A stretch of DNA of 63,340 bases, counting the filler. It is 18 parts of 18 records of this genome, joined end to end, with 100 filler letters (N's around TTAATTAATTAA, not from the genome) between each part and the next. Parts side by side here need not be neighbours in the genome. Positions count along the whole stretch, not along the records: positions 32,523 to 35,620 come from SRR7504441_64633; 17 more parts are not named here. The stretch is one strand, 5' to 3'. A program made the translations under genes and the position numbers. The notes under the pieces were generated by a model. It searched no databases. It saw only the letters and a list, made by a program, of their open reading frames with translations, and was not told the origin of the DNA. Positions 1 to 60,032 of the stretch are shown here, in pieces (the stretch's first letter is position 1; the number at the start of each line of letters is the position of its first letter).

Positions 1-3000
1 ATAGTCTCCAGAACCCAAGTGGTACGTCGTTGTAGCGGTGCCAGGTTCACACGAACCAACGAGATGCACACCCAAGCTTTCTTTAACTGGGATTCCACTC
101 TCCCGGACTACACTGCTGTTGGTGGGCAGATAGGCATGCGCTTCTGTGTTTGGTGGAACGGAGACATTGTACTGACAGGCCCGCCCATGCACCGACCAAG
201 AGCTTCGGATCGGGCCAAAGCCAGCGTCGAAGCTTGCTGACGCTGAGCTTACTCCACCGACACCGAATGGTGGCCTGAGCGCAAACAATGCAAACCCAGC
301 ATGGCCAGCAGGACGTCGTATGCCACCGATGCCCGAGACGAACCACTGCCCTATCCCATTCAGGGTGCCGTGCATGACTGAGAGAGAGCCGCTAGTCCAT
401 TTGTTGCACTTGTATGGCTGCTGTGGGTTGGAGTCGCCATCGCCGCACCTGCCATACAGAACCGGTTCAGTACAGTCAAGCTTTCCAAGGCAGCAGAGCG
501 CGTGACCTGCCCCACTCCTCGGGCCATGTGCTGTATCCTTTGGAGAGCAAGTCGCTGTAGCCGGGCGCCGTCTCGACAGTGGCCAGCTGGTGTACTAGGG
601 TGTCATGGCCGCCACCATTCGGGAGCGAAGTGTCGTACAGGAGTTTGGTCATGAAATAGAGCCCCTGCAAGCCTGTGTCGATGTGCCCTGCCTGGCGGCC
701 ACTGATCTCGTCGGACAGTGCTGCCCAGACGCGCTCTTGGTACTCGAATGGCACTGCACCGGATATCAAGGGCATCGCCAGATGCGTCTGGCGAGAGTCC
801 AGGTAAGTGGCGGTGCTTTGGTTGAACCACTTGCTATGGATTGCTGCTGCCAGTGCCTCAGCAGCACGATGGTGCGCAGATGCCTTGGACTCAAAGCCCA
901 GCACGTTGGACACATTGGAGACGATTCGTGTGCAGTACAGGATGTAGCAGTTGTTGAACAGCTCTGCCTCTGGGCTGCTCAAACCCCCTTGTGGAGGCTG
1001 CTCAGAGCCATGAGGGCTGACCTGTCACCACTTGGGTTCAGCCGCCAGAAAGCTTGTCGGCACTACATGCTTACCCAGTCGCCCAGGAATGTCCAAGGGT
1101 CGATTACTTTACCGTTCTGGACGCCCCAATCATGGACCAGCCCGTCTGTGGCGCTAAGGCTGCGGCCCCAGAAAGAGAGTAGAGACTCCATGGCACTGAA
1201 TGAGCTTTGTAACATTTGCACATCGCCGTATGTGAGGTAGACTTGCCTGGCACACCGGCTCAGTCAGCCCTGGCGGTGTGGCGAGGCGGGGGGCGATGGC
1301 ACGACCCACCAGGGCATAGTGATCAGGAAGCCACTCCATGCAGGCCCACCACCTCCGTCGATGGTTGGCGCTGTGTGAGGCACATAGCCCGTGCTGTTGA
1401 GCCCCGCTGTGTGCGCCGGATACGACTGCACGTCTTGGATGTCTTGCAGCCACTTCGTATAGAACTGTCCAGACTCGAGGTTCTGCAGTGCAGTCTCGAG
1501 GCTGGTATGCGCGTCTCCGAGGTAGCCTAGGCGCTCCCTATGAGGGCAATCCACACTCATCCCACCAGTCACGAGATTCGCGAGCGTCCAAATCGAGGTG
1601 CGATACACTTGGTTGAGCAGCTGATCAGAGCTCTCAAAGGTGCTGATAGTTGCCCTACCGCTCTGCTGGCCTGCTGCGGCGATGTTGCCTACACGGTAGC
1701 CCATCAGCTGTTGGAGTGCCGGAGCCTCCAAGAGCCCTTCAATCACGAGATAGTGGACTTCATGGTACGAAAACCTCGGCAGAAAGGTCCAGTTGCCGCC
1801 CGATGCAGCGGACGTCACCACCCGATGCTCCATGTTGTACTCAGGGGCGTTGCTGCAGAAAGGCCGGCCCTGCTTCGATGCTTGCCTCGCCTCCAGTGTG
1901 CCGCACACGGGCACTGAGCTTGCTTTGATTGCCACTGTCGCCCCGCCGCTGCTCTTCATGCCGCTCAGAGACACCCAACCGGCAAACGGGCGCTCAAACT
2001 CAACCAAATACTTTTGCGCGAAGGGCAGCAGCTGGCGTACCGCCTTGGCTGCAATCCTCTCTCGCAGCTGGTTGGGCTCGGAGCAATCGTGGCTGAGGGA
2101 TCGCCCAGCTGGAGTGTGCACCGGTACTGCTTGCTGCCAGCCGTCGCTGTCCTTCAACTGCGGCGAGGCCCACAGAGGCTCCGAGAGGCTGTGATTGACC
2201 TCATCGCCCCCGAAGTCAGAGTTGCGCCACTTGCCGAGATGCCTGGTGTCGGAGCGCTTGGCCTGCCAAGTGCCGTCGCTGACCAGCATCAGGGCTGGTT
2301 GGGGTGCAGCCTCCGAGGTGAAGCTCAGCTGTGCGAGAGTGATCGGCGAGCCAGCTGAGCTATTGAATAGATTGGGCACGGAGGGGTTGACTGAGGTGTA
2401 GTCACTCCAGCCGCGTGCCAGCCAGAGGCCCAGCACATTGGGCTCCCCTGCCCTGAGCAGTGGTGTGATGTCGTAGGTCCTCAGCAGGATCCGCTTGGAG
2501 AGATCGGAGACTGCAGGAGCCAGCACGTCGCTGCTGGCCTTCTTGCCATTTATCCAGAGCTCGTGGTACCCGATGGACCCCACAGTGGCCAGCACGGTGC
2601 TGCCGGCTGAGTGGAGCGTGGATGCTGGCAGCTGGAAGCTTTTGCGAAGCCACGGACAGTCTGCACCATCAGTGCTCGCTGCGCCAATGAAGCGAGCTGA
2701 GGCATCGATTGCAGCACCGACGCTGAACCGGCGGATCGGGCTGGTGGATGTGTTGGTGCTGGTGTTGAAGGTCAGCTCCACCCGCCAGTGGTAGACGGCC
2801 CCTCGAAGGAGCGGATCGGTGCCAGCGAACCGAACGAGCTGCGAGGCGCGGCTCTGGACGATGCCAGAGTCCCACACCGTCGAAGTGGCGGAGAGCGAGG
2901 CAGAGGTGGCCACAACCAGCCTGTAGGAAGCCTGTACACTGGCCCGCGGCAGCCCGACGCGGGGATGCCAGCTGAAACGTGGGCGCGTCGATTGGAGGCC

Positions 3001-3126
3001 CAGCGGGCTGCTTACATACTCGACTTTGGTCTCCACCGTCGACTGGGCCGCACAGCCAAGGATTAGCACGAGGAGCGCCGCACAGTGCGCTGCTCGACAC
3101 CTCATTGCCAGTAGTGATGTATGCAC
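1..3126 (-). CDS. Secreted GH78 alpha-L-rhamnosidase-like glycosidase, 4 exons, 3' end runs off contig
   Basis: Signal peptide (ALLVLILGCAA), PRFSW N-domain, DCPHRERLGYLGD, FLGDW, TWPEEW and terminal LGSGDY. GT-AG introns at 1247-1309, 1022-1074 and 449-506 join ORFs 1264..3126 and 476..982 and a final exon in frame. Confidence 0.9.
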
Positions 3127-3281
3127 AACCTTCTAGCTTAATCGCAGACGCCCAACGCGCAGATCAGCCTGCGCCGCCCCGGTGCCCGTCAGCTCCGGTG
3201 CTCTGCCGTTACTGAACATTCAGTTGACGGTAACGATCTCAGCGCGGCGACTGCGCTGGCCGCTCGGTGGCGCGGGGCGAT

Positions 3282-5476: not shown

Positions 5477-5576
5477 NNNNNNNNNNNNNNNNNNNNNNNN
5501 NNNNNNNNNNNNNNNNNNNNTTAATTAATTAANNNNNNNNNNNNNNNNNNNNNNNNNNNNNNNNNNNNNNNNNNNN
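5477..5576. other. Artificial contig linker (N-run + TTAATTAATTAA + N-run), 17 copies in the window
   Basis: The same ~100-nt linker recurs near 5477, 8722, 11841, 15227, 18405, 21658, 25260, 28380, 32423, 35621, 39249, 42903, 46405, 49840, 53314, 56440 and 59933. TTAATTAATTAA gives stops in all six frames. Confidence 0.98.
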
Positions 5577-8609: not shown

Positions 8610-8892
8610 GCGGTTGACTCATCAGATCAATGTCCGTTATTACGACCTACATCAGCGCTATAACCAGCTGGTGTGGCATGGATAGCTTGGTCGAGCTGCA
8701 TCTGGCCCGGCCAGGCACCGCNNNNNNNNNNNNNNNNNNNNNNNNNNNNNNNNNNNNNNNNNNNNTTAATTAATTAANNNNNNNNNNNNNNNNNNNNNNN
8801 NNNNNNNNNNNNNNNNNNNNNCGCACTTCCCTGCCTTATTTATTCTATAGGCAGTTGGCACCCCTCCCTAAGGGCGCTACCGACCAAAAATC

Positions 8893-15475: not shown

Positions 15476-18337
15476 CTATTTGGGACCGATGGAAATGTTG
15501 GTCATCGATGTCGCTGGCTTTGCATGTGGATTCGCAAACAGCCCATCGACACCGCCGATGATGCGACAGTTGTCGAGCTCCAGTGAGCCATACGTGCCGT
15601 GGTCCACAAGGTGACAGTCCCCCTTGCTCCCAGCTGCCTTCCGTTCAATGGTGAGGTTTCGCATCGAGAGGTGTCTCCGCCCATCGATGTATTGGACGCC
15701 AGTGCCTCCATCATGCTCCACCAAGGCGTTTGGACCCCAGCCGAAGTCGAAGACCGCCTTGTGCTTTTGATAATTCCAGGCATACGCATGGTCATCGTCA
15801 ATCTTGTGTCCAAAAACTACATCGAAGCCCTCAATATCGGTGGCGCCTGGTACGCGCCTTATCGGATCCAATGGAAAGCCCTCAGGCTCGTCGGTACCTA
15901 GAACTAGCACGGCTTCGCCGTCGGTGGGGCCTTCGATGACCAACCAAGCTCCAGGATTCACATGGCGCGAATTGAGCTCGTAGCGACCAGCGGCAAGCCG
16001 GATCACGAAAGGCACTGGCCGACCAGAAGGGCTTCTACGAAGAGTTTGCAACTGTGAATTGGTCCATGAGACCGCCTGAAGCGCCCAGTCGATGCCGGTA
16101 TCAATCTCACCCTCTGGCTGCACATTGAATACCCGAGGCCCAAAGGTCTGCCATGTCCAAACCAGCTCCATATCGGGCTCAGCCTCCATCCCAAACACAA
16201 CCCGGCACTGATATGCCGTATTCATCCGGTAGAGTGGCTTGGGGATCAGCCACACTTGGGGTTGAAAGGTTGAAAGATGAAGACTGGGGTCTTGGGGATG
16301 ATCACGCATCTCAGCACACCAGGTCGGTCCAAACCCTGGCGTGTGCCTTGGGCACACCACCCAGCAGGGCACAACTGCCCCAGTTCCGACCTCGGTAAGC
16401 TCTGCCACCTTGAGCTCACGATACTTGGCAGCATCGGCGGGGTCCCAAAAGCCGATCTTGATGAATGAGCCGCCCACATTGCCGCATAGCTTGTTGGCGG
16501 CAGGTGGGAGATGCGACGCGACAGCTCCCACCTGATGATCAGGGTGTCGACGACGGATCACGTCATTCAATTTGTCCATCCCAACAAGCCCTGGTCGGCC
16601 GCCTGCACACTCTCCAAAGAAGCTGTTGTTTACCAGGTGTCCCGGGGGCGGATAAACCCACACTCGACTCGTGTTGTCCGCGGCCAGGCCATCACGGGGT
16701 CCGGGCCAAGCCGGAGCATTGGGCGCGCCATGATCCATTGTGGTGATGAAGCCTTCGGTATGGCCATACATGTTTGCCAGGTCAATGCTTTTCACTTGAA
16801 GATGAGGAACGGGGGATGAGGTGTTCAGAAAATGTGTCATCAGCTCTCTAAACATGTGAAGTCTATCGCCAAAGGATGGCACTCGAAAACTGAGCAGATG
16901 CTGCGGGAAACGAAAGTAGTTGCCGCCCAGAATGCATTGTGCATGTCCAAATCCGTTAGCGTGTGACTGCATGCCGATCGCATTCTGGTATCCATGTGGA
17001 TGATCACCGTGGAGGCCAGAGTAACCTGCCAGGTCAAGAATGTCTCAGGCAGGCAAGGGTCAGGATTGGGGCTTACCGGTGTTTGTATACAAGTCATTCA
17101 TACTAAAGTGCGTGAGCGGGACGAGCTTTGCCCGAGGGAAAGAGACGGCTTGCTGCTGGTCTGCTACGAAGCCACCATAGAAGCAACGAGGCCGACCAAG
17201 AAGCATAAAGAAATGGTTTAGATACTCTGAATTCTGCAACACAGCTCCGTGCCGATCCCCAAGAAGCCTCGGTGCCAAGCACGGGTCAGCACCCAGCTCC
17301 GCATACGTATCCTGCCCAGGCAGCAACCGCGCGCGAGGGTGTGAGTACAAGTTGCCTAGGTGCTGGTCTTCAATCAACGAGCGAGCCGGCTGGTAAACGC
17401 CCACCCAGCGCTCCCGGGTCGGCCAAGGCGCTGCGGGAACGTCAGTGTCCCAGCCCTCCTTGAGTGGGTAGTGGCCTTGCTGGCCCCACTGATCTACGCC
17501 CAACGCATCCTCCGACTGGTGCAATGGCCGTGCATGAGACGGTACAGTCTGCAGGAAGGTCTCACGCTGCGCATCTTCCAAGCAGAGAATATACTGCTGG
17601 CGCTCCCACTTTGAGAGCCTCATGAAGGTGCCCGGCGCAAGCAGTGACACGCTCCGGACCGCGTATCCTCCCGTGTACATGCAGTTACCGCTGTCCCACG
17701 CTGCGGTGACAATTTGCGGGTCGAGCGCTAACGGATCAGTGAACCCCATATCTTTAGAGTGCCGACATTCTTTCGTATCGCCACGCACCATCTTCAGGAA
17801 GCCCTCCGGCAGCGCGAAGATAATAAACCCTTGTGTTGAATGCATATGCCCGTGCACTAGGGCAGGGTTGTGGACACAGTCCCCGTGCACCTCGGCGCTG
17901 ATCTGGCTCGCGCCGTTGTAGGCGGCGCGCACCCTGCCGATATCATTGTTCAGATGGTCGCGCATGGTTGATCTCGGGGGCTGAGGCGCGGGGGCCGGAG
18001 CAGCCCCTGTCCGTGTCCACTTGTACGCACCTCCGTTGGCTGTCAACCCACACACGACCCCACTACCGTCCACCACTAAATCAAACGAGAGCGTCGGATT
18101 GGTCGGGTCTGCGAGCCGGCCGTCGGCGGTCTCGGCGAGGGTCCACACGGCCCAGTCAAATTTGAAGGTGTACTTGCCGCCAGCGGCCCGGGTCATGCTG
18201 CCGGTCAGCGAGTGCGACGCGAGCGCATAGTCCCCGACCGGGTCCCCTGCGAGCGTGCCCATTCGCTTCGGAGGGCGGGCGGCCTGGATCTGGCGGCGGT
18301 CAGCGCTCACCGCTTCAGAGGAGGCGCAGGCTCCCAT
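15476..18337 (-). CDS. ~936-aa protein of unknown function with an N-myristoylation/palmitoylation-type N-terminus and a C-terminal beta-helix-like region
   Basis: ATG 18337 gives MGACASS. GT-AG intron 17026-17076 joins ORFs 17060..18397 and 15476..16972 in frame. The C-terminus reads IRLAAGRYEL...LSMRNLTIE...LELDNCRIIGG. Confidence 0.7.
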
Positions 18338-18603
18338 CTGCCATCCCGACGCCGCGGCAACGGTTCCGAGTTGCTGCTGATGCCGTTGGTGACCCAACTG
18401 ACTTNNNNNNNNNNNNNNNNNNNNNNNNNNNNNNNNNNNNNNNNNNNNTTAATTAATTAANNNNNNNNNNNNNNNNNNNNNNNNNNNNNNNNNNNNNNNN
18501 NNNNTTTTTCGCAAAAAAAAAAAACATGTTTTTGGTTCGGGTTGTGTTATTTGACTTATTTCAACAACGTCTGACCGTTATCTGTGAAATCTGGCTGGCC
18601 GGA

Positions 18604-32422: not shown

Positions 32423-32522
32423 NNNNNNNNNNNNNNNNNNNNNNNNNNNNNNNNNNNNNNNNNNNNTTAATTAATTAANNNNNNNNNNNNNNNNNNNNNN
32501 NNNNNNNNNNNNNNNNNNNNNN

Positions 32523-33881
32523 CGAGCTTAGGGCGCGGCCTGCGCCGGCTGTGCAGCTTGCCGAGCACGGCCATGCCATTCGACGCGGTGCAGCTCGACC
32601 TCGGCCGGCTCGACCCGGACCAATTCGCCGCCAGGCTCCCCGCAGCGCTGGCGAGCTGGCGGGAGCAGGGCAAGTCCGCAGTCTGGCTGCGCGCCCCCGA
32701 GTCCTCCCCGGCCGGGATGGTGGCCCAGGCGGCCGAGCTTGGCTTCCGTTACCACCACGCCGAGCCCGGTTCGGCCATGCTCTCGCTCTGGCTCGGGCCA
32801 GGAGAGAGCAAGATCCCTGGGTACGCCACGCACAAGGTCGGCTGCGCCGGGATGGTGTTCAACCAGCAAAGCGAGCTGCTGGTTATCCGGGAGACCCGCG
32901 GGGTGGACGGGCGGCCCGGCGGGTTTGGGACCGGCTGGAAGCTGCCCGGTGGGCTGGCCGATCTGGGCGAGGGGATCGGAGCGGCGGCGGCTCGTGAGGT
33001 GGAGGAGGAGACTGGCGTGCTGTGCGAGCCTGTTGGGCTGGTCGGATTCCGGGAGCAGCACAATACGGTGTGGGGCCGGTCTGACCTCTACTTTATATGT
33101 GAGATGACGCTTGCCGGGTCGCCCGAACTGACTGCAGCACCGGGGGAGATCGCTGAGGCAAGGTGGATGCCAGTGGACGAGTTCGCAGCATCTACCGACT
33201 CCCAGATGAACAACTTAGTGGCACGGACCGTCGCGGCCCGGGCCGGCCGCCCCAGCTGCCTGCACCCTACCACGCTGGAAGTCAAGCCGTCGGGCAGCCG
33301 GGGCGGTGTGCTTCACATGCCAGGCCCGCAGCCAGCACTCTCGGCCGCCCAAGCGTGCGCCGTGCTGCTCCGCGAGCGAAGGCAGACGGTGGCGCTCGCC
33401 GAGAGCTCGAGCGGTGGCCTGGCTGCCGGTGAGCGGCTGTGTGCGCTGGGCTGACGGGAGGACAGGGCTGCTGCTGGAGGTGCCTGGCGCTTCGGGGTTC
33501 ATTGGCTCGAGTGTTGTTTGCTACTCAAAGGCCGCAAAGCAGCAACTGCTCGGGCTCAGCCAAGCAGAGCAGCAAACCGCTGCCTCGGCCACGCCCGAGC
33601 ACGCGCTGGTGCTTGCCCGAGCCGCGAGGGAGAGGCTGGGAGCGGACTGGGGTGTCGGGGAGACGGGAGTGGCAGGGCCAACCCCAAACAGCCGAGGGGT
33701 GCCCCCGGGAGTGAGCTACGTGGGGGTGGCCGGGCCGGGCGGCGTCTCTGCGACTTGTCGGGTGGGTGTGGATGGGCTGGATCACACGCGCGGAGAGTGG
33801 ATGCGAACCTTTGCTGCGGGTGCAATCGAGTTGTTGCGTGATACTATCAGCGATGACAAGCAGCGTGACCGTCAATGTTAG
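32523..33881 (+). CDS. NUDT6-type Nudix hydrolase fused to a CinA C-terminal (PncC-like NMN deamidase) domain; 1 intron; frame open to contig edge
   Basis: Pre-Nudix SLASWREQGKSAVWL..GFRYHHA..WL..IPGYATHKVG and Nudix box GLADLGEGIGAAAAREVEEETGV. Intron 33429-33465 joins AESSSGGLAA to GLLLEVPGASG..CYSKAAK..ETGVAGP. Confidence 0.88.
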
Positions 33882-34081
33882 ATCAGTGTCAGGGATTTCG
33901 TCATGGAGTCCTAGCGCCCTTGCATCCGTGGACCGGAGCCGGAGATTTTAACTTTAAGCTCCACTCGCAGGAGGCGCGCAAACTTATCTAACTTATGTTG
34001 TTTTAATTAGAGCTGAATTTATTGTTCTAAATCAGCTTTTGGGGTACATATAGTTGCTTTGGGGTTTAGTTTTCCCCATCC

Positions 34082-35338
34082 TCATTGGTTGTCCATGGCC
34101 GTTCCATACGAGGCTCCCGACTCGTCATCAAGGTGCACTTCAATCATTGGACCATACCACACACCATCCACAAGATCAGCGTTCAACATCTCGTCGGTGC
34201 CATCAGCGAGGTCTCGAGGCTGTAACACCACCCCAACCTCAATCCCGGCAAGGTTGGCAATCAAGGCACCATAAACGCATGAGAGCTCACGGCCCCGCGC
34301 CGCCAGCCAGCCTTGTACATGAGAATAGTTGCCAGTTGTGAGCTGAAGACGTGATATTCGGACTCGAGAAGTTGCTCTTCGGTCTGCAGCTCGGTGGAAT
34401 TGCAACAGAGCCATGGCGGGACGTAACAGCAAGGGCAGCAAGATTGGCAACGCAGCAAGGGGGGGACGCAAGATCGGCCCGGCGAGTCTTGGGTAGGCCT
34501 ACCAATGAAATTGATGGCCTGCACACCGCTTGCTCAGTCCCAACAGCACACCCTTTGGTGCACCTCCTGACTCCATTCTCTGAAGTTGGCAGGCTGCCGC
34601 AGCTCCTGTGAGTAGGCCAACCTCATTTTCTCCTCGTAGGCCGACCACTCCGGTGATCTGAACTTGATCATGTCCAGCCCTTGCACCTCCTGATTCTTGC
34701 CCTTGACTAGCAACGTGTAGGAACGTGGATGATAATCGAACACAAAGGGGCGAGTAGGCTGCTCCCTGCCCCCCCTTCAACCTCTGCGGGAGGCCGGCCC
34801 ACTCGTCGCGGCGCTTGTACGTCGGGATCGCCATCGGTTCCCCACTGGAGCTCCTTGGCTCGCCCTCCAGAGCAGGCCGGTGCACCCTTCGCCAAAACAC
34901 GGCAGCCCCCTGCCGGAGGTATTCCTTGACCACCAGCTGCACTGGGTCCATCAGGCAGTACGGGCCTACTGCCTCCAGCAGGTGTGGCGCTTCCATTTGG
35001 AGTTCCAATCTGCCCACCGTCAACCAGGTCGGCAGGCCGGCCACCGTCCCCCATCCGGTGCTCTGCCGGGAACAGTCGTAGCCGTCCAGACCACCATCCC
35101 GACGTGATCTGCCCAACCGTCCCCGCTCTGACGCTCGTGCTGCGCTACCGATCGGGGAGCGGGTGCAGCAACGAATACAGCCGCTCCCAGCCACTGAGGA
35201 GTGGCCAAACAGGATGAGGTCCCCAGCCCGCATCTGGGTGAGCATCTCGGCAACTGTCGTCCGGTCCGGCGCTCCGCTGACCACCGCCGCCGCAGCCGCG
35301 AGCTTGAGCGCGCCCGCCTCGCCGCCGACTCCCGACAT
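34082..35338 (-). CDS. Permuted papain-like (NlpC/P60 YiiX-type) protein with Ser at the usual catalytic Cys, 5 introns
   Basis: Spliced MRAGDLILF..IRCCTRSPIDHVGMVVW..LLEA..VFWRR..IGRP..VFSSQLA..AG..FMPRDL. Confidence 0.68.
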
Positions 35339-35720
35339 CTCCAGAGAGACGCGTCAACCACTGCTTAGACTACCGGTAAGTTGGCAGTTGCGGACTCTGC
35401 TTATCAGTTCACAACCGTAGAAAAGCTGTTGCATCTCATCGCCACTCTCCTCCTCGCCGCCCAGTGCCGGTGAGCCCACCCCTATGTCCACCAGAGTAGC
35501 CCCCGACGCGTGCTGCCAGTCACGCCGGACCGCCCGCTCTGCCCGGCCCCGCCCGCCTCTGGTCTCTCTGCTTGCGCCCTGGTGTATGCGGGCTCGGCTC
35601 GTCCACGCCAAGTTCCTGACNNNNNNNNNNNNNNNNNNNNNNNNNNNNNNNNNNNNNNNNNNNNTTAATTAATTAANNNNNNNNNNNNNNNNNNNNNNNN
35701 NNNNNNNNNNNNNNNNNNNN

Positions 35721-49212: not shown

Positions 49213-49839
49213 TCACTGGTATGCATTGGGCTTGATCACATCGTCAATCTTGAGGATCATGCGTACAACTTGAGTAGCTAGGCGGAACTGTTGGATCTTC
49301 CCAATCAGGGTTTCAAAAACAAACTGCTCCTTCATATCTGCAGAGACAGAGCCGGTCAGTCGCAATCTAGGGTACTGCTAGAACTACTCACTATCTTGGT
49401 CTTTCTCCATGCAGTCCACCCCTATGTGCGGGCACTGCTCCTGAATCTGCTTTGCCTTGATCCGGGCAACAGTCTCAATCGGAGAGAGTCCTGAGTTCTC
49501 AGCCAATGCCATTGGTGCAGCCTCAAGTGCATCAGCAAATGATCTGAGAGCATATTGCTCGATGCCTGACACCTAAGAACAATCAAAGATCATTCCCTTT
49601 CCAAACCACAGGCACATCCAAGCAAGTCCAGGGCACATAATTTCAAAACTTCAGTGTGATTATTAACGTTGCAGACAAGGCATCTGCATCTGACCTGAGA
49701 AGCGGATTCCATGACTTTGAGAGAGCATGCAATCTCTGCAGAACCACCACCATACACAATTTCATTATCAACCACTAGATTGCGAGCGACACAGATAGCA
49801 TCGTGAAGTGACCGCGAGGCCTCATCCACCATCTGCCAC
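49213..49839 (-). CDS. CCT5: T-complex protein 1 subunit epsilon, C-terminal part
   Basis: [50 protein letters not shown] and [16 protein letters not shown]; 2 introns. Confidence 0.92.
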
Positions 49840-59749: not shown

Positions 59750-60032
59750 ACATTCGTATAACCTGCCGAGCATTTAGGCTAGGTTCCATAATAAAAGCTA
59801 AATTAAAGCCACATGAAGCCACACGCATTATCGGCACAATCCGCTGAGCCGTTCATCCAGGAACGGCACACGCGCTTCTTCGAGGTCCGCCGACAGCCGT
59901 TTGCTGCAGGGAAAGTGACGGCCAGTCGCCCANNNNNNNNNNNNNNNNNNNNNNNNNNNNNNNNNNNNNNNNNNNNTTAATTAATTAANNNNNNNNNNNN
60001 NNNNNNNNNNNNNNNNNNNNNNNNNNNNNNNN

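Follow-up and report, generated by a model that had tools for sequence, protein, structure and literature searches.

A Candidate Nudix–PncC Fusion Enzyme of NAD Recycling from a Presumed Marine Protist

Introduction

To our knowledge, nicotinamide mononucleotide (NMN) deamidase is regarded as an essentially bacterial enzyme. The gene described here joins a PncC-type domain of this kind to a Nudix hydrolase; it is called the Nudix–PncC gene below and stands at the left end of its contig (SRR7504441_64633, positions 32523-35620) within the window, that is, the whole stretch of 63,340 nucleotides of DNA that was analysed. In PncC, a Ser/Lys dyad makes nicotinic acid mononucleotide (NaMN) from NMN (PMC5384747), and the bacterial COG1058 domain fused to PncC is an ADP-ribose (ADPR) pyrophosphatase (PMC3680494). 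Fusions that contain an ADPR pyrophosphatase, both COG1058–PncC and Nudix–NadM, were read by their authors as a link between the consumption and the recycling of nicotinamide adenine dinucleotide (NAD) (PMC3680494). On the Nudix side, AtNUDT2, 6 and 7 split ADPR and NADH to about the same extent (PMC6856373).

The survey of PncC phylogeny in PMC3855486 has only three eukaryotic sequences, all fungal and all predicted to be inactive, and CinA is there said to be "occasionally fused with other domains", a matter that the survey leaves aside. In the literature that was searched, including a Nudix-clan review and a survey of NADH diphosphatases, subscription-only papers aside, no Nudix–CinA fusion is described and no algal or protist NMN deamidase either. 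Such architectures already stand in public protein sets under automatic names, so that the finding is not categorically new. An earlier note on this DNA had proposed that the idea of a novel fusion would fall if the architecture was widespread and described; widespread it is, but a description was not met with in that literature. The Nudix–PncC gene is a real and rare same-order variant within a broader, unstudied joining of Nudix and CinA domains, and it is not unique.

The two-domain CinA proteins of bacteria (Thermus thermophilus CinA, 4CT8/4UOC; Shewanella oneidensis PncC; Oceanobacillus iheyensis PncC) likewise place a pyrophosphatase half before a PncC-type domain. The Nudix–PncC protein keeps their PncC blocks P-I, P-II, P-III (with its Tyr and Lys), P-VI, P-VII and P-VIII, and of the solved structures, that of Thermus CinA matches its C-terminal half best. 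Its N-terminal half, however, has the Nudix fold; COG1058 (PF00994) was looked for with Pfam without a match, which places the protein outside the COG1058/MocF–PncC family, and there is no middle domain of the KH type. Unlike bacterial CinA, this is moreover a eukaryotic gene, with a candidate intron and a leader peptide. AtNUDX7 (4ZB3/4ZBP), AtNUDX2, 6 and 10 and human NUDT6 share PF18290, PF00293 and an intact Nudix box with it, but they end after the Nudix domain, whereas the Nudix–PncC protein runs on into the PncC-type domain. Bacterial NadM–Nudix proteins also combine a Nudix ADPR pyrophosphatase with an NMN-recycling enzyme (PMC3680494), although the partner there is an adenylyltransferase and here a deamidase-type domain; the NCBIfam model of NadM–Nudix gives a weak match confined to the Nudix part, at 21.1 bits where the cut-off is 449. 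A further family, which also occurs in marine protists, unites the three Pfam domains of the gene in a single protein, in the opposite order.

The reading preferred here, to which slightly better than even chances are given, is that the locus encodes a bifunctional enzyme of NAD recycling, an analogue of bacterial COG1058–PncC that is built on a non-homologous pyrophosphatase, with two predicted activities and a possible coupling between them.

A Nudix Hydrolase Joined to a PncC-Type Domain

Once 37 nucleotides within the coding region are removed, the two exons of the Nudix–PncC gene, on the plus strand, encode a protein of 423 amino acids (Table 1); left unspliced, the frame that opens at the ATG at 32573 meets a stop at codon 293. 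The succession of PF18290 and PF00293, both far above their Pfam cut-offs, together with the intact Nudix box, assigns the N-terminal half to the NUDT6/AtNUDX2-6-7-10 type. The box, GGLADLGEGIGAAAAREVEEETGV, fits the consensus GX5EX7REUXEEXGU. Further on, exon 1 carries profile positions 4-30 of the CinA domain and exon 2 positions 34-154, so the break falls inside that domain, and exon 2 alone clears the gathering threshold of PF02464 (CinA). The earlier note had pointed to an intact Nudix box, the Ser of the AES motif and the Lys of YSxxxK, all of which are indeed present.

Structural work was done on P0003, a homologue with the same three domains, rather than on the spliced Nudix–PncC protein itself. 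A sequence search of the PDB with P0003 returned AtNUDT7 as the best match (4zb3, 9.1e-37), followed on the same half by human NUDT6 (3h95, 7.3e-19; also 3fxt), and for the C-terminal half Thermus thermophilus CinA (4ct8, 8.1e-15). The AlphaFold2 model of P0003, computed from a 52-row alignment, has a mean predicted local distance difference test score (pLDDT) of 86.4 and a predicted template modelling score (pTM) of 0.60. It consists of a Nudix unit (residues 26-265), a disordered stretch (266-285), a hairpin (287-307) and a CinA unit (325-487); the beta-hairpin has its counterpart in the Nudix–PncC gene in the conserved inter-domain motif KPSGSRGGVLHMP. In Foldseek, the first unit matched AtNUDT7 bound to AMPCPR (4zbp, E 3.5e-21, target-normalised TM-score, TMt, 0.67-0.70). 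The second unit matched the CinA-family structures 6l19 and 5kvk (TMt 0.91, root-mean-square deviation 1.6-1.7 Å) and 2a9s (TMt 0.83); over the CinA chains, TMt against P0003 ranged from 0.83 to 0.91 and the deviation from 1.6 to 2.3 Å.

Homologues with the Same and with the Reverse Domain Order

P0003, of 488 amino acids, is 51% identical to the product of exon 1 and 56% identical to that of exon 2; counted over domain columns against the spliced protein, identity is 58% for Nudix and 55% for CinA. A gene of the P0003 type recurs on an independent metagenome contig (L001) as one uninterrupted open reading frame (ORF) at 1145-2608, 99.8% identical. The order of Nudix before CinA is found also in P0134 (373 amino acids, truncated at its N-terminus), P0016, P0017 and P0143, while P0015, P0145, P0170 and P0239 are close fragments that bear the CinA part; all of these, same-order homologues and fragments alike, are metagenomic and come from short contigs. 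The argument of the earlier note that the fusion is no merger of neighbouring genes is upheld by P0003/L001, P0134, P0016, P0017 and P0143, in each of which it is a single uninterrupted ORF. Since P0003 and L001 encode the fusion without an intron, its existence does not depend on the 37-nucleotide element. The arrangement is uncommon: when P0003 was searched against a library of 1.84 billion proteins and the best 150 representatives were inspected, three had the same order, five the reverse order and three were close CinA-only fragments; in the other 139, which matched through Nudix only, a local search found no CinA part.

The closest non-fused relatives of the CinA domain of the gene are stand-alone ORFs of the AESSAGG type (L002-L013), which share 38-45% identity with the CinA part of P0003. 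These stand-alone CinA/PncC-like ORFs, among which P0018 is also counted, are about 170-190 amino acids long and lie on GC-rich marine metagenome contigs (G+C fraction 0.58-0.72). Their catalytic motifs are complete. They have in common with the clade of the gene the motifs AES/T-S-x-GG, CY[ST]xxSK, TATE.HA and GETGVAGP as well as the Arg, and differ from it by an extra insertion that they share (WPDD.L.A.DAYGQAP), placed ahead of the last helix. On the stand-alone loci nothing matched the Nudix part of P0003, and six ORFs that flank the gene on L011 were without a match in Pfam.

P0141, P0142, P0169, P0226 and P0235 contain the Pfam domains of the gene arranged as CinA, Nudix_hydro, NUDIX. 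Among the 120 relatives listed in a search with P0141, 58 have all three domains by manual count, with the reverse order verified for those of the 58 that were checked, and nine more have PF18290 and PF02464. Complete ORFs from the MMETSP and EukProt transcriptomes are included, as are the dinoflagellates Cladocopium goreaui ("Nudix hydrolase 8") and Polarella glacialis, and some of the relatives carry the automatic JGI name "NMN deamidase PncC / MutT". In the ESM Atlas, P0003 (0.95) and P0141 (0.97) are both nearest to one eukaryotic cluster of 69 members, with Haptophyta as the commonest phylum and all three domains present. Leads with lower scores were bacterial CinA+NUDIX clusters of 189 (Chloroflexota) and 63 members (Verrucomicrobiota), and diatom "NAD(+) diphosphatase" NUDIX+CinA clusters of 54 and 56 members (scores 0.76-0.77), of which 94-95% carry CinA.

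The catalytic residues of the reverse-order family have changed. Lys63 is absent from all 26 rows (Ala in 22, Ser in four), Ser31 is kept in 14, Thr105 is replaced by Ser or Asn in 24, and an invariant Lys occupies position 4 of block P-IV (motif ASK). The CinA domain of this family, to which P0282-P0339 also belong, would thus be remodelled or non-catalytic in dinoflagellates, haptophytes and relatives. The Nudix–PncC gene stands outside that family, with Nudix ahead of CinA and Lys63 in place. In the CinA tree, the 26 reverse-order rows and the 32 bacterial rows each stand behind a long, fully supported branch, the latter of which sets the present domain apart from the bacterial ones; the tree leaves the clade of the gene between the two groups without settling its attachment. 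In the Nudix tree, a branch with 96% support separates four same-order and 23 Nudix-only rows from 20 reverse-order and 24 other rows. Forcing the 24 fused rows into one Nudix clade costs 22.9 log-likelihood units, and the approximately unbiased (AU) test does not reject the single clade (p = 0.22). An independent origin of the two orders is thus favoured but not shown.

The Deamidase Site

The blocks P-I to P-IX of the PncC family were defined on the CinA of A. tumefaciens, AtCinA (PMC3855486), the activity of which is abolished by S31A, Y58A, K63A and R145A; the C32A variant retains 260 of 362.5 mM-1 s-1 (PMC5384747, Table 1). In a 68-row alignment of active sites, 10 rows of which form the clade of the Nudix–PncC gene, the protein itself has E30, S31, G46, S48, Y58, K63, T105, G106, G120 and R145, so that it holds the catalytic Ser and Lys as well as the phosphate- and ribose-binding set of the PncC subfamily. 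Apart from Ser31, every one of these residues is present in all ten rows of the clade. Position 32, a Cys in AtCinA, is Ser in 10 of 10. On these comparisons the deamidase site is apparently intact at the level of residues, and NMN deamidase activity would be predicted.

Several features weigh against a working deamidase. Ser31 is kept in eight of the ten clade rows, with Gly in its place in P0134 and Thr in P0239. Block P-IV reads ASAT rather than G[AV]VS, with Thr at the Ser position in 10/10, and Asn60 is replaced by Lys, so that the G[AV]VS and Asn60 by which PncC is recognised in PMC3855486 are both missing; changes in block P-IV and in YxNxxK are linked there with inactive paralogues. 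The NCBIfam model TIGR00199 (PncC_domain) has a curated cut-off of 68.9 bits, which P0003 (60.8) and P0134 (63.2) narrowly miss; exon 2 of the gene alone gives 49.2, the domain of the gene having been scored only in pieces. The earlier note had drawn doubt from the AESSSGG variant and from the missing GAVS motif, and both are true as facts of sequence; they weigh little, given that the C32A enzyme is active and that variants at these sites are active in Thermus. Thermus CinA reads ESLTGG, YSVGAK and RTVS at the same sites in the PDB-search alignment with P0003, and it has NMN deamidase activity (PMC4246079). An active enzyme thus departs at both P-IV and Asn60, and these blocks are not strictly required.

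P0134 reads AEGSAGG around the Gly at the Ser31 position, and the next residue is Ser throughout the clade (10/10); either P0134 lacks activity or the adjacent Ser is of importance in the clade.

On another reading, the CinA-like half is no deamidase at all: an otherwise ordinary ADPR/NADH Nudix hydrolase would carry an NMN-binding or regulatory module, or an enzyme with a different substrate. Fusions often contain PncC-like domains that lack the catalytic residues, as the reverse-order family (Lys63 in 0 of 26) illustrates, one NCBIfam model of the CinA family is named 2-oxo-tetronate isomerase, P0003 and P0134 score below the PncC_domain cut-off, and CinA-family paralogues of E. coli lack NMN deamidase activity (PMC3855486). 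The clade of the gene, by contrast, has Lys63 in 10/10, the gene itself has every residue whose mutation kills AtCinA (PMC5384747), and the stand-alone relative L004 clears the PncC_domain cut-off with 71.6 bits; a CinA half without deamidase function is accordingly regarded as unlikely.

Possible Role in NAD Turnover

As a bifunctional recycling enzyme, the protein would work as follows. The N-terminal half, a NUDT6/AtNUDX7-type Nudix pyrophosphatase, would cleave ADPR (or NADH), and the C-terminal half, a PncC-type amidohydrolase with its Ser/Lys dyad and phosphate-binding set, would convert NMN to NaMN and ammonia. Between them, the two halves would clear ADPR (or NADH) and NMN, by-products of NAD consumption, and the resulting adenosine monophosphate (AMP), ribose 5-phosphate and NaMN would go back to NAD synthesis via the Preiss–Handler route. 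The "missing" combination of a Nudix ADPRase with PncC would thereby be supplied, and the recurrence of the Nudix–CinA pairing in further lineages speaks for a link of function between the two. The closest analogy would be "ADPR pyrophosphatase + NMN deamidase", and not a proven channel from NAD(H) through NMN to NaMN.

It was such a channel that the earlier note had envisaged, with the Nudix domain taking over from COG1058. In its sequential form, the Nudix half would split NAD+ or NADH into AMP and NMN(H), a product that the PncC half fused to it would deamidate at once. Both halves are intact in the Nudix–PncC protein, AtNUDT2, 6 and 7 hydrolyse NADH (PMC6856373), and the diatom NAD(+) diphosphatase clusters with NUDIX and CinA fit a logic of NAD to NMN to NaMN, although these clusters are leads from the Atlas, at scores of 0.76-0.77. 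The comparison with COG1058 did not hold: the bacterial model fusion works otherwise, its COG1058 half being an ADPR pyrophosphatase, and NMN is not made from NAD there (PMC3680494). Furthermore, the P0003 model, with its disordered linker and its pTM of 0.60, does not predict that the two sites are held in a fixed position relative to each other. A strict channel is possible but less supported than clearance of ADPR and NMN, and its chances are put as low.

Cleavage of NADH gives reduced NMN (NMNH) and not NMN, which tells against the channel and, with the points that follow, against NAD recycling by this protein more generally. We know of no evidence for NMNH as a substrate of PncC, nor of an established substrate for human NUDT6. 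NMN is directly accepted by the NMN adenylyltransferases (NMNATs) of eukaryotes, so that the need for a deamidase is itself questionable.

In its fullest form the proposal is tentative, and it is thought rather improbable that all its parts will hold together: that marine protists have built a CinA-like bifunctional NAD-recycling enzyme from a non-homologous Nudix pyrophosphatase and a catalytically competent PncC domain; that this enzyme, probably mitochondrial, would be the first NMN deamidase of a eukaryote in which the Ser/Lys dyad is intact; that the fusion would have arisen independently of the widespread, lysine-less reverse-order family, Nudix and CinA having then been joined at least twice in protists; and that it would represent an unrecognised step of ADPR and NMN clearance in eukaryotic NAD turnover. 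If true, some protists would send NMN through the deamidated Preiss–Handler branch, and the pairing of a pyrophosphatase with an NMN deamidase would have been invented with two unrelated pyrophosphatase folds. The intronless homologue P0003/L001 can be directly expressed and assayed, and the same-order clade, set beside the lysine-less reverse-order family, would offer a natural comparison of active with inactive forms.

The Candidate Intron

Good indirect evidence marks the 37-nucleotide element as a probable intron, its splicing being predicted from sequence comparison. It has GT..AG ends and a branch-like CTGAC motif whose A lies 12 nucleotides before the end of the element, and its removal restores both the reading frame and the homology, as would be expected of a spliceosomal intron. 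The spliced protein aligns without a gap at the junction to five homologues (AESSSGGLAA-G-LLLEVPGASGF against AESSSGGAAASELVAVEGASQF and similar). The earlier note had placed an intron of this length within the CinA-like domain, and the domain is indeed interrupted there, with profile positions 30 and 34 on either side.

The window was scanned for elements of the form GTRAG..YAG, 20-160 nucleotides long and with CTRAY, by which open frames of 80 codons or more are joined. The scan gave ten candidate rows from six places, and two of these are short and clean, 33429-33465 and 17026-17076. The second, on the minus strand, is 51 nucleotides long (GTAAGC..CTGAC..CAG) and joins frames of 442 and 515 codons; short introns in the style of the first are therefore present elsewhere in the assembly.

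Five marine RNA runs contain 0.05-0.13 of the sampled words of the gene, and six RNA contigs of 151-228 nucleotides, from four of the runs, match exon 1 with 96-100% identity. The four runs are marine libraries from three studies, two of them made with oligo-dT. There is a weak case from these contigs that exon 1 is expressed, with carried-over DNA as another possible source. All six fall within 32650-33378 and none crosses 33429-33465. Another view takes the 37 nucleotides for inserted sequence, a mistake of the assembly or damage to a pseudogene, which would leave a Nudix protein with a CinA stub. It is a very improbable alternative, since the fragmentary assembly, the shortness of the element for a spliceosomal intron, the RNA contigs that all stop short of the junction and the different style of a 122-nucleotide intron on another contig have to be set against a canonical GTGAGC donor, CTGAC branch site and CAG acceptor, an exact gap-free match to the homologues upon removal, the retention of all conserved catalytic residues in exon 2 and the similar signals at 17026-17076.

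Leader, Contig and Host

The Nudix–PncC gene begins at 32523, which is the edge of its contig, so its 5' end may be missing. The homologue P0003 has a leader of 27 amino acids, MLRFRRLLARADAHSRRSLSSALPQIT, ahead of the conserved MPF(N/D)AV; it is rich in Arg and Ser, with six Arg, one acidic residue and a predicted helix at residues 2-12. The 16 codons that precede the ATG of the Nudix–PncC gene, SLGRGLRRLCSLPSTA, are probably the remnant of an N-terminal targeting leader clipped by the contig edge. The earlier note had described the frame upstream of the ATG as open and similar to a presequence; it is open for those 16 codons, and P0003 does have a presequence-like leader, but the start of the frame at 32523 is where the contig ends. 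The leader of P0003 and the partial one of the gene fit a mitochondrial presequence, which suggests import into mitochondria.

The window is made up of 18 contigs of about 3.1-3.5 kilobases with 17 identical joints (N44-TTAATTAATTAA-N44) between them. The G+C fraction is 0.64 for the contig of the gene and 0.69 for the gene (0.78 at third codon positions). The named relatives nearest to the Nudix half are those of the ochrophyte algae Tribonema, Pylaiella and Choristocarpus, with 37-42% identity, and a Pfam search of 105 ORFs of the window has a eukaryotic look (ankyrin, RCC1, UBFD1, TCP-1, protein kinases, glycosidases). The locus is best explained as nuclear, belonging to a marine protist of GC-rich DNA and lying on a 3.1-kilobase contig of a fragmentary assembly. 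Bacterial contamination was considered and rejected in view of the intron, the NUDT6-type N-terminal domain with its ochrophyte relatives and the matches in oligo-dT libraries. Genomic context was rejected as a line of evidence: the kinase ORF on the left-hand side is part of a different contig and no physical neighbour.

Table 1. Features of the Nudix–PncC gene and its left-hand joint, in window coordinates.
Feature	Position	Strand	Details
Contig joint, N44+TTAATTAATTAA+N44	32423..32522		Sequence to the left belongs to a different contig
Open in-frame codons before ATG, SLGRGLRRLCSLPSTA	32525..32572	+	16 codons; abut the joint
Exon 1, as far as present	32573..33428	+	285 codons and first base of split Gly codon
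PF18290 Nudix_hydro, NUDT6/AtNUDX-type N-domain	32591..32794	+	Pfam 58.4 bits, cut-off 26.5; residues 7-74
NUDIX domain PF00293	32837..33205	+	Pfam 72.8 bits, cut-off 21.1; residues 89-211
Nudix box GGLADLGEGIGAAAAREVEEETGV	32948-33019	+	Motif match, intact
Inter-domain conserved motif KPSGSRGGVLHMP	33284..33322	+	Alignment; GS.GG.L kept in P0003, P0015, P0016, P0017
CinA/PncC domain, first part (profile positions 4-30)	33344..33424	+	Exon 1; 13.4 bits, weak alone
Block P-I AESSSGG, Ser31 equivalent	33398-33418	+	Within first CinA/PncC part
Candidate spliceosomal intron, 37 nucleotides, phase 1	33429..33465	+	Donor GTGAGC, branch-like CTGAC 33450-33454, acceptor CAG
Exon 2	33466..33881	+	Last two bases of Gly codon, 137 codons, stop TAG 33879-33881
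CinA/PncC domain, remainder (profile positions 34-154)	33471..33845	+	Exon 2; 93 bits, cut-off 23.5, E 1.8e-26
CinA motif GAS	33483-33500	+	Exon 2; alignment/motif match
CinA motif YSKAAK	33522-33539	+	Exon 2; alignment/motif match
CinA motif ASAT	33582-33602	+	Exon 2; alignment/motif match
CinA motif ETGVAGP	33660-33680	+	Exon 2; alignment/motif match
Arg145 equivalent	within 33786-33812	+	Exon 2; alignment/motif match

Other Features of the Window

The joints between contigs fall at 5477-5576, 8722-8821 and so on to 59933-60032, and the neighbourhood of genes across a joint is meaningless. An Rfam search of the whole window gave no match. The remainder of the contig of the Nudix–PncC gene (34085-35620, minus strand) gave no match in a Pfam search; its frame is open save for two in-frame stops, TGA at 35354-35356 and TAG at 34499-34501, and may be a gene with introns or merely a GC-rich open frame.

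The frames that flank the 51-nucleotide element at 17026-17076 lie at 17063-18403 and 15479-17044, and neither has a Pfam match; the locus is probably a large intron-containing gene of a family to which Pfam gives no assignment. In an alpha-L-rhamnosidase gene at 1-3132 on the minus strand, the Pfam domains are distributed among two or more frames (1267-3132 and 1-594), and the middle part of the six-hairpin domain is unaccounted for, which makes further introns or frameshifts likely. A fragment of a TCP-1/CCT chaperonin gene at 49384-49838 on the minus strand contains the 122-nucleotide intron (GTCAGA..TTCTTAG) on a contig with a G+C fraction of 0.44-0.57. Its style differs from that of the short introns on GC-rich contigs, so that more than one source or compositional class may be represented in the assembly.

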